Shown here: in pieces, positions 49,801 to 52,800 of the stretch
Layout of the letters: every line of letters begins with the position of its first letter
How positions within the stretch are numbered: the stretch's first letter is position 1
Assembly: GCF_056712565.1 (NCBI RefSeq)
Contig: NZ_CM160072.1
Direction: 5' to 3' (one strand)
DNA length: 64,000 bases
Program-made: the position numbers

Positions 49801-52800
49801 ACCCCGCCCCCCCCCCCCCTGGCTCAATAAAATCTACCAGCGTCTCTTCCAGCCAACACCCAAATGCATTTCTTTATAAATTTAATCTGTAACAAAACCG
49901 CTTCCCATATAGAAATATTTGCAAAAATAGTGCATTAAAAAAGCTTTTTCCCTACCAATCCGGGATATAAATATTCATCAGCACCATAATATTCCACATA
50001 ACTAAATCTCTCCCTGCCGCCCCGTACCTCTGATAATGGTCTAAAATCATTGAGGCCACTTGCGACGGCGTTGCTCAATAAGGAAAATTTGGCGTGAATA
50101 ATATTCAACACCAGTGCAGCATCATCATTACATACTTACGCCCGCCGACTACCGCTTTCGATATATTGACTCAATTTTCCAGCCTGGTTAAAAATAGCGG
50201 CCAGCTCAGTCGCAAATATAGTGACTACCCTAACTAAGCAACAATAAGGAATACACTATGACTGTTCAAAAAAGTAAAAATCCACAGGTCGATATTGCTG
50301 AAGATAATGCATTCTTCCCTTCAGAATATTCGCTTAGCCAATATACGAGTCCCGTCTCTGATCTTGATGGCGTGGACTATCCAAAACCGTATCGCGGTAA
50401 ACATAAAATTCTGGTGATCGCCGCTGATGAACGCTATTTGCCGACTGATAACGGCAAACTCTTCTCAACGGGCAATCATCCGATTGAAACGTTGCTGCCG
50501 TTGTATCATCTCCATGCTGCAGGTTTCGAATTCGAAGTGGCGACCATTTCCGGTCTGATGACCAAGTTTGAATACTGGGCTATGCCGCACAAAGATGAAA
50601 AAGTAATGCCATTCTTTGAGCAGCATAAATCGTTGTTCCGCAATCCGAAGAAATTAGCGGATGTTGTCGCCAGCCTGAACGCAGACAGCGAATATGCAGC
50701 GATCTTTGTTCCCGGTGGTCATGGTGCACTCATCGGTTTGCCAGAAAGTGAAGACGTAGCCGCCGCTCTGCAGTGGGCTATTGAAAATGACCGTTTTGTT
50801 ATCTCCCTATGCCATGGTCCGGCTGCTTTTCTGGCGCTTCGCCACGGCGATAACCCACTGAACGGTTATTCCATTTGTGCATTCCCGGACGCCGCAGACA
50901 AACAAACGCCAGAGATAGGCTATATGCCGGGTCATCTCACCTGGTACTTCGGCGAAGAGCTGAAGAAAATGGGCATGAACATCATTAATGACGACATCAC
51001 CGGGCGAGTACATAAGGACCGTAAAGTTCTCACCGGCGACAGTCCTTTCGCAGCGAATGCGTTGGGTAAACTGGCGGCACAGGAAATGCTGGCAGCTTAC
51101 GCGGGTTAATCCCTGTTACGTTTGAATGTAAGCGCATAATCAATCGCAGCCGCGTTAGTACTCACGACGTGGCTGCGTTTTTCACGGTTAATTTATGGCG
51201 TACTGAAGCCCTATGTTAATTTCTTTGCGGTAACGTAATCCGGAACACATTATGCTTACTGAGATAGTGATACGTAGCACTTCCCCCATGTAATTCGGCA
51301 ATCGCTTTGACTAAAGAAAGACCAAGTCCCTGACCTACGGAATGACGCGAATTATCTCCCCGCCAAAATCTACGGAAGAGTTTTTCAGGCTCATGAATTT
51401 TCGTTCCAGGACTGGCGATATCAATATTAAGAGAACCGTTGGTATCAAGAAAACTGGTTATCTGAATACGCGATTTTTCTGGCGAATATCGAATAGCGTT
51501 AACAATAAGATTCGATAACATTCGTTGTAGTAAAATTTTATCCGCAAAGATGTGCTGATTGCACTCGACCTTAAAGCAAATCTCTTTCTCGTCTGAAAGG
51601 TATTCAAGATAGTCCAACAAATTTTCGACTTCATTATTGAGAGAAAGCGAGTCCAGTTTCACCAAAACATTATTTTTATCTGCCCTGGCAAGAAACAGTA
51701 TGTTCTCTGTTAATCGCGAAATATTTTCCAGCTCTTCAATGTTTCCGGCAATTGTTTTTTGATATTCAGCGATACTTCTGGTTTGACTGAGCGTAACCTG
51801 ATTCTGACCCAGTAATGCATTAATTGGCGTTCTAAGTTCATGAGCGAGATCGTCAGCAAACTGACTTAGACGTTCAAAATCTTTGACTAAAGCTTGGTGC
51901 ATTTTATTCAACGCCTGCCCAAGAGGTTTTAGTTCTCTCGGTAATGCGCTAACCTCAACAGGCTCTCGGCTATCGTTATAATTCAGCGCTTCCGTTACAC
52001 CACTCAACTTTTTGATCTCTCGTAACCCCGTTCTGATTAACAACGGACTTAATACTGAGCACAGTATAATGGCGACAATGCAAATTATAATGCTATTAAT
52101 TTTATACTGTTCAAGCATGTTATGTCTGGCTGAAGCCAATTTAGCCACAGTAACCGTTAATGATGGCGAAACTTCATCAATATTAATTCGTAAAGCATCT
52201 ATCTCTGTGTCATTAATAATGCTTCTGTAAATGCCAGCTGCGCTGATTGTCTCACTAGCAGGTATGTTATTTAACATGCCATTACTGACATTTGTCCGGT
52301 TAACAATTTTATTGATGCCATCACCATGAATGATCAAGATATCCTGACTAACATCCATCATCCGGTTAAAGTACACAGGTAACGTATCTGGATTTACCCC
52401 ATCAATTAACAACTGCTTGATCTGCGCTGTCCGGTTAATGAGTGTTGTATCATCGCGCCATTTCAACTCACTTGCCAGGCCATTATAGAGAGTCCAGACA
52501 ATTCCAGCGCCAGCAACAAACAGCAGCAATATAAAAAGCAAGGTTAAACGGACGGTTATAGATAATCTTTTCATTATTTTTTTACCGCTACGAATGAATA
52601 GCCCATCCCCCGGATTGTGGAGATTAGCTTTTCAGGAAAAGGATCATCAACTTTTGCGCGGAGCCTGCGAATGGCGACGTCCACCGTATTGGTATCACTA
52701 TCAAAGTTGATTCCCCAAATTTCACTCGCAATAACCGTTCTGGGGATAATCTCGCCAGCTCTGGAGGCCAGTAGCCAAAGTAACTGAAACTCCTTGCGCG

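Follow-up and report, generated by a model that had tools for sequence, protein, structure and literature searches.

Polymorphic non-coding mononucleotide SSRs of E. coli, reportedly described by Gur-Arie et al. in 2000 and said to have been used later by the same group for typing strains, are the closest known kind of element to the homopolymeric tract analysed here. A further class is formed by the poly-G/C contingency loci of Neisseria, Haemophilus, Campylobacter and Helicobacter, whose tracts are maintained by selection and occupy either a coding sequence or, as in porA and opc, the spacer that separates the -35 and -10 elements of a defined promoter. As a general principle of how repeats evolve, a microsatellite can be born when the base that interrupts it is lost, and the threshold behaviour of repeats has reportedly been discussed for human repeats in one paper. 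Across 1,346 Escherichia genomes, C runs of at least 6 nt average 6.22 (SD 0.57), and more than 60% of runs of at least 10 nt were intergenic in the same genus-wide survey (Ishiya & Nakashima 2022, PMC8928963). Neither yedS nor hchA is named in the text of that survey (PMC8928963).

The tract described here is located between a yedS-type porin gene and hchA in a 64,000-nucleotide stretch of one strand of contig NZ_CM160072.1 (RefSeq assembly GCF_056712565.1), the whole of which we refer to as the window. A sequence-only reading had reported a run of 13 C residues following ACCCCG, about 150 bp past the yedS stop and about 440 bp before hchA, and had described this run as intergenic and prone to slippage. 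Both the position and the slippage-prone character of the run were confirmed. Direct reading of window positions 49801-49820 gives ACCCCG, 13 C residues and T, with the run itself at 49807-49819 on the plus strand (G13 on the minus strand). The gap between the yedS-type porin stop (49659) and the run is 147 nt, and the gap between the run and the hchA ATG (50258) is 438 nt. The features of the region are as follows.

48514-49659, plus strand: intact yedS-type porin gene, from ORF calls and the annotation of relatives.
49702-49739, plus strand: intrinsic terminator following the porin gene, in which a 12-bp stem (7 G-C pairs) precedes TTTTTT.
49799-49833, plus strand: two weak promoter-like hexamers on either side of the tract, TTACCC (49799-49804) and TAAAAT (49828-49833).
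49801-49806, plus strand: ACCCCG, the 5' flank adjoining the run; alignments give ACCCCG as the B2-type flank and ACCCTG as the K-12 type.
49807-49819, plus strand: uninterrupted C13, a hypermutable mononucleotide repeat, by direct reading; the orthologous site is C6-C12 in ~141 complete genomes.
49818-49822, no strand assigned: CCTGG (CCWGG, the Dcm motif), made up of the last two C residues of the run and TGG, present in all alleles.
49860-49990, no strand assigned: AT-rich stretch (GC 0.26-0.33), by composition, separating the tract from the hchA promoter region.
50041-50054, plus strand: putative main hchA promoter, with C at -13 and the -10 hexamer TAAAAT at 50042-50047, placed from the K-12 start site.
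50258-51109, plus strand: hchA (glyoxalase III / Hsp31), 283 aa, from its ORF and annotation.

In the RefSeq annotation of relatives the porin gene encodes a 371-aa 'porin' that would begin at ~48544, and in K-12 yedS is a frameshifted pseudogene. The terminator behind this gene was unchanged among the four alleles aligned, and the C13 run begins about 70 nt past its end. On the other side of the run, the AT-rich stretch at 49860-49990 is, from its composition, a plausible target of H-NS; control of hchA by H-NS was reportedly described by Mujacic and Baneyx in 2006.

The run stands out from the rest of the window. No other homopolymer in the 64 kb exceeds 8 nt: among C runs the second longest has 7 residues, and G runs do not go beyond 5. 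Under an iid model, the expected number of C or G runs this long or longer is 0.0013 per 64 kb. At 13 nt without interruption it exceeds the slippage threshold of about 7-8 nt or more. The C13 run is an extreme length outlier for E. coli.

We compared the site across 5,426 complete RefSeq E. coli genomes. The 598-bp spacer between the two genes is present in 4,868 of these, mostly at 90-95% identity, with a match of at least 99% in only 125. An uninterrupted C run occurs in ~141 of the 5,426 genomes (about 2.6%), such that ~97% of E. coli lack the tract, and the usual sequence of the species at this site is CCCCTCC. Alleles were counted with short tract-centred queries against the same 5,426 genomes, requiring identical flanks of 38 and 39 nt. 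This gave C12 in 3 genomes, C11 in 22, C10 in 42 (a figure obtained by subtraction), C9 in 49, C8 in 14, pure C7 in 5 with a further 3 carrying one flank mismatch, and C6 in at least 3; one of the three flank-mismatch C7 genomes (ACCCCA-C7) and one C6 genome were read directly. C13 was found in none of the 5,426 other complete genomes, and the window therefore carries the longest allele seen. The length comparison across related genomes proposed in the sequence-only reading thus revealed a polymorphic series from C6 to C13, in which strains differ by single units within conserved flanks, as expected of a microsatellite. The lengths form a single hump and fall in all three frames, with no ON/OFF two-state pattern.

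Carriers of the tract include UTI89, NU14, IHE3034, S88, UM146, APEC O1, the type strain DSM 30083, ETEC H10407 and NCTC86, with ST95-type ExPEC/APEC as the notable carrier group. Outside the complete genomes, a metagenome scan returned a single matching contig, and a scan of genome contigs with a general flank pattern returned a single match, a contig of contaminating E. coli DNA within a Collinsella MAG. The tract was C9 in both.

An alignment of 16.7 kb around the tract was made from twelve genomes and the window. Nine of the aligned sequences form one ST95-type haplotype group, with pairwise differences of 0-5 SNPs and 9 variable sites in the 16.7 kb. Within this group the tract lengths were 13, 12, 12, 11, 11, 10, 9, 11 and 10, which amounts to five different lengths, and no other indel was present among the nine haplotypes in 16.7 kb. 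A range of 9-13 needs at least 4 single-step events at one locus, as against 9 substitutions over 16,690 sites. From this we infer that the rate of change of the tract exceeds the per-site substitution rate by a factor of at least about 7,000, a figure which is a lower bound; the tract is changing much faster than the sequence around it.

The sequence-only reading had also raised the possibility that the run was a sequencing or assembly artefact. We reject this as an account of the feature as a whole, since independent assemblies show the run many times over, in the ~141 genomes and in two metagenome-type contigs, and since members of one clone give the same length. Between UTI89 and NU14, for example, there are 0 SNPs in the 16.7-kb alignment, and both carry C11. 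NCTC86 was C8 in two independent assemblies, EC0880B was C9 in both of its derivatives, and six CSF isolates from one study were all C10. Since lengths agree within identical haplotypes and between repeat assemblies, the variation points to real slippage rather than noise, and the polymorphism of the tract is biological.

The caution of the sequence-only reading was well placed with respect to the exact length. Long G/C homopolymers are the hardest positions on every sequencing platform, C13 occurs in no other complete genome, and the nearest relatives of the window carry C12. The value of 13 could be off by one, and variation between genomes could in part reflect long-read or 454 homopolymer miscalls. 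We therefore considered whether the count of 13 was a consensus error in a real tract, with a true length of 12 or less or otherwise at least one unit off in either direction. Over 56.5 kb, the window differs from its nearest relative, Z0117EC0054 (C12), by 6 SNPs and a single indel, which is the tract itself, and the A8, T8 and C7 runs in this interval showed no indel. Because the tract is the only indel in 56.5 kb, the window assembly does not appear to be indel-prone. In addition, C13 is one step past the observed C12, as a stepwise process predicts, and lengths agree between independent assemblies of one clone. On this evidence a miscounted run is unlikely, although it deserves some weight. 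Two SNPs are private to the window, and neither occurs in any complete E. coli genome.

The alleles that lack the tract suggest how it arose. At this site K-12 has ACCCTG-CCCCTCC-TGG, and the core is CCCCTGC in LS45 and CCCCTCC in O55:H7, Eco889, FDAARGOS_1252 and an ST131 strain. The interrupted form CCCCT[C/G]C is thus 7 nt in 6/6 of the non-tract alleles examined. The ST131 allele has the exact flanks of the window around an interrupted core (ACCCCG CCCCTCC TGGCTCAATAAAATC), and an intermediate with the flanks of the window and a pure C7 core is extant in five genomes. With the polarity of change resting on within-species alleles, the ancestral as well as the majority state is the interrupted, length-stable CCCCTCC. 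In the simplest history, a T-to-C substitution in the B2-type allele (ACCCCG CCCCTCC TGGCTCAATAAAATC) removed the interruption to give pure C7, from which replication slippage in one-base steps then generated the series from C6 to C13. Slippage is accordingly the mechanism that we propose for the changes in length.

The present distribution of the tract reflects both clonal inheritance, in particular within ST95-type ExPEC/APEC, and transfer of the tract allele into unrelated backgrounds on a recombination block of ~3-4 kb. In four tract-bearing lineages (C8-C10) the flanks differ from the window by 88-310 SNPs, and in each of these the SNP density falls to ~0 across roughly 48.8-52.8 kb. This drop in otherwise divergent lineages indicates that the tract allele was exchanged on a recombination block. 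The shared recombined block covers the 3' half of yedS, hchA and hprS.

Position relative to the hchA promoter is central to whether the tract could have a function. In the K-12 5'-end data, two start sites are assigned to hchA (Kim et al. 2012, PMC3415461, supplement). The main site, 2033655, is 204 nt 5' of the ATG and is represented by only 6 reads; the second is weak (3 reads) and lies just past the yedS stop; and no start site is listed on either strand between 2033274 and 2033655 (PMC3415461). By sequence identity, the 51 nt reported for the main K-12 start site map to window positions 50004-50054, with the start at 50054. The -10 hexamer TAAAAT (50042-50047) and the C at -13, which we take to be a sigma-S-like feature, are the same in K-12 and the window, and the K-12 start site would presumably apply in the window strain. 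On this basis the tract lies at -235 to -247 from an hchA start site that was mapped in K-12, a strain that itself lacks the tract. An RpoS SELEX peak listed for hchA is ~1.9 kb upstream, near rseX, and is uninformative on the tract.

The sequence-only reading had noted that runs of this kind act as phase-variation switches in other bacteria when located in promoters or 5' UTRs. The position of the tract, far upstream of the K-12 start and 70 nt past the porin gene terminator, gave this suggestion no support, as the repeat is not inside a credible ORF, a core-promoter spacer or the 5' UTR of a controlled gene. Conservation within the spacer is also informative. The 50-bp bin that contains the tract has the lowest conservation of the spacer, at 78% identity to K-12, and the 200 bp adjoining hchA is 96-100% identical to K-12. 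The tract is located in apparently unconstrained spacer DNA between the yedS terminator and the AT-rich region upstream of hchA, and this position, together with the lack of conservation, suggests that changes in its length are probably neutral.

We considered a phase-variation switch in which tract length would tune transcription, whether of hchA or of some unannotated transcript in the sense or antisense direction, either by changing the spacing of promoter hexamers or by altering the phasing of upstream H-NS or activator sites. The hypermutability of the tract and the AT-rich, H-NS-like stretch 3' of it are consistent with such a role, as are pairs of hexamers that bracket the tract on both strands in a relaxed promoter scan. 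On the plus strand, TTACCC and TAAAAT are separated by a spacer of n+10; at C13 this amounts to 23 bp, beyond the usable range. On the minus strand, TTGAGC and TAAGGT are separated by n+7, giving 16-18 bp at the modal lengths C9-C11. However, hexamer pairs of this quality (7-8/12) occur 14-44 times per kb in the window, as expected by chance, the bracketing hexamers differ between alleles, and neither pair has a usable spacer at C13. A strict promoter scan found nothing at the tract and a single site at 50166-50195, near hchA. Transcription in the minus-strand direction would run into nothing but the complement of the yedS terminator and the gene's 3' end. The interval without K-12 start sites on either strand, the distance from the hchA start, the fixed CCCCTCC of ~97% of E. 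coli and the unimodal rather than two-state distribution of lengths all argue further against a switch, which we regard as highly improbable.

Searches for other functional elements across the tract gave a similar picture. No Rfam family matched 49400-50400 at E<=1, and Rfam matches in the whole window were confined to rseX, DsrA and tRNAs, all away from the tract. The curated MG1655 annotation contains no feature within the spacer. ORFs over the tract, recomputed for C7-C14, were 28-55 aa with TTG starts in every frame, and Pfam returned no family for the two window ORFs that cross it. A coding or frameshift-switch reading was therefore rejected, since no ORF in any frame exceeded 55 aa or avoided a TTG start from C7 to C14. 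A PGAP 'hypothetical protein' is annotated in the spacer of a minority of genomes, on opposite strands in different genomes, and Pfam returned no family for the 105-aa example from strain LS45; we take these calls to be spurious.

Base composition around the tract raised the further idea of a rut-like element, in which C-rich RNA would recruit Rho against yedS read-through before hchA, with longer C runs acting more strongly. Poly(C) is the strongest activator of the Rho ATPase, the tract is just 3' of a terminator, and the plus strand has a GC skew of -0.49 to -0.67 over 49740-49880 that stays negative to ~50040. The C-rich, G-poor composition of a rut site, over ~70-80 nt 3' of a transcription unit, is indeed present. 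Alleles that lack the tract already have the same bias of C over G, however. Little read-through is expected, since the intrinsic terminator, with its 12-bp stem and T6, looks strong, and the tract is dispensable in ~97% of strains. Recruitment of Rho by the run is accordingly highly improbable.

A more speculative proposal combines two separate ideas. The ST95-type run might be a true contingency element, acting as a minus-strand promoter spacer or through H-NS or Rho on hchA; in the former case, TTGAGC-(n+7)-TAAGGT would be a weak minus-strand promoter that is optimal at the commonest lengths, C9-C11. Separately, instability of the run might be boosted by Dcm and very-short-patch repair. CCWGG is the target of Dcm methylation, the run abuts the Dcm site CCTGG (49818-49822), and very-short-patch repair synthesis that begins at CCAGG on the minus strand would go on to copy the adjoining G run. 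If true, this would link the repair associated with cytosine methylation to homopolymer slippage. Taken jointly, these ideas are a long shot.

We therefore favour the reading of the C13 run as a lineage-restricted, hypermutable mononucleotide microsatellite that is probably neutral and has no demonstrable regulatory role, to which we assign a probability of roughly 0.8. It resembles the polymorphic mononucleotide SSRs of E. coli in being a pure intergenic single-base run that differs in one-base steps between strains, with identical flanks and no known function. It is unlike the usual C/G runs of E. coli in that it is far longer, at 13, and confined to ~2.6% of genomes, and unlike other SSRs of the species in that its birth from CCCCTCC and its spread on a recombination block are traceable. 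With contingency loci it shares a G/C homopolymer of 8-13 nt and slippage much faster than point mutation. In contrast to those loci, the tract is >230 bp from the promoter mapped in K-12, lies outside any credible reading frame, is missing from most E. coli and lacks two-state lengths. It thus mutates like contingency poly-G/C but does not have the position that defines that class. The general model of microsatellite birth is matched by an interrupted form that stays at 7 nt (6/6 alleles), a pure run of 6-13 and an extant C7 intermediate, although here the case concerns a single locus in one bacterial species, with the rate estimated from haplotypes.

The tract is notable for its length and for its traceable birth as a repeat, and is otherwise ordinary. 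Greater importance would attach to it only if, in pathogenic lineages, its length affected hchA, a gene of stress response and glyoxal defence, and nothing here supports that. No other site in the region varies as much, and ST95 sub-lineages that are near-identical over the 16.7 kb of flanking sequence can be told apart by it, so that it could be used for typing at fine scale. Variant callers and assembly polishing can also be expected to stumble over it. E. coli is mismatch-repair-proficient and normally avoids long G/C runs, and in this species the locus provides a clean natural case of the birth of a homopolymer, from CCCCTCC to C7, followed by its diversification from C6 to C13.

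A promoter-like site was predicted from sequence in the spacer between yedS and hchA:

50166-50195, plus strand, promoter-like site (TTGACT, 18-nt spacer, AAAAAT; 9/12 match)

Since this predicted site, about 60 nt 5' of the hchA ATG, is nearer to that codon than is the transcription start known from mapping in K-12 (-204), hchA may have two promoters, the K-12-mapped one and that at 50166-50195. PGAP also annotated "hypothetical proteins" inside this spacer, in some genomes only and on opposite strands, in strain LS45 (L003) and in a second comparison sequence (L026):

L003 1613-1930, plus strand, 105-aa "hypothetical protein"
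L026 10050-10337, minus strand, 95-aa "hypothetical protein"

The 105-aa protein had no Pfam match, and both annotations are probably spurious gene calls.

The 3' end of the C13 tract creates a Dcm site, CCTGG (49818-49822), which on the minus strand reads CCAGG followed directly by the G run. Because of this arrangement, very-short-patch repair synthesis proceeding from the minus-strand CCAGG would copy the homopolymer. Any link between the Dcm site, or this repair, and instability of the tract is pure speculation. The dcm and vsr genes are present in the same window (~44942-46811), approximately 3-5 kb upstream of the tract.

The E. coli yedS-hchA spacer with the nine-C allele of the tract was also detected in JAIJJM010000575.1, a contig of 2.1 kb that bears the label "MAG: Collinsella sp." and represents E. 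coli contamination in a Collinsella sp. bin. Unexpectedly, searching the genome contig collection with the general flank pattern matched no E. coli representative genome.

Two changes elsewhere in the window are private in comparison with complete RefSeq E. coli genomes. Codon 104 of dgcQ (minus strand, window position 42201) is GCG (Ala) in the window, whereas it is GAG (Glu) in every ST95-type relative examined. An 89-mer around this position matched no complete genome exactly and 3,049 with at least one mismatch, making this a private non-synonymous Glu to Ala substitution in a diguanylate cyclase gene. The second is a T at 53283, 38 nt 5' of the hprR ATG inside the divergent hprR-hiuH region, where it adjoins a CCTGG site as well as a sequence resembling a CATTACAAAATTG box. 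Here the surrounding 89-mer had exactly one mismatch in 5,404 of the 5,426 complete genomes and an exact match in none, which makes the T a private substitution in a regulatory spacer of very high conservation.

The yedS-type porin gene (48514-49659) was intact in the window and in all tract-bearing relatives, where it is annotated as a 371-aa "porin", whereas its K-12 counterpart is a frameshifted pseudogene. Rfam identified two small RNAs at gathering score, rseX being immediately 5' of the porin gene:

48143-48232, plus strand, rseX small RNA
39721-39807, minus strand, DsrA small RNA

The 3' half of yedS, together with hchA and hprS (~48800-52800), forms a near-identical block in MS14384, ETEC4091, SW071610 and N51, amid flanks that differ by 1-3%. 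This pattern is a signature of homologous recombination that carried the allele into other backgrounds, among them ETEC H10407.
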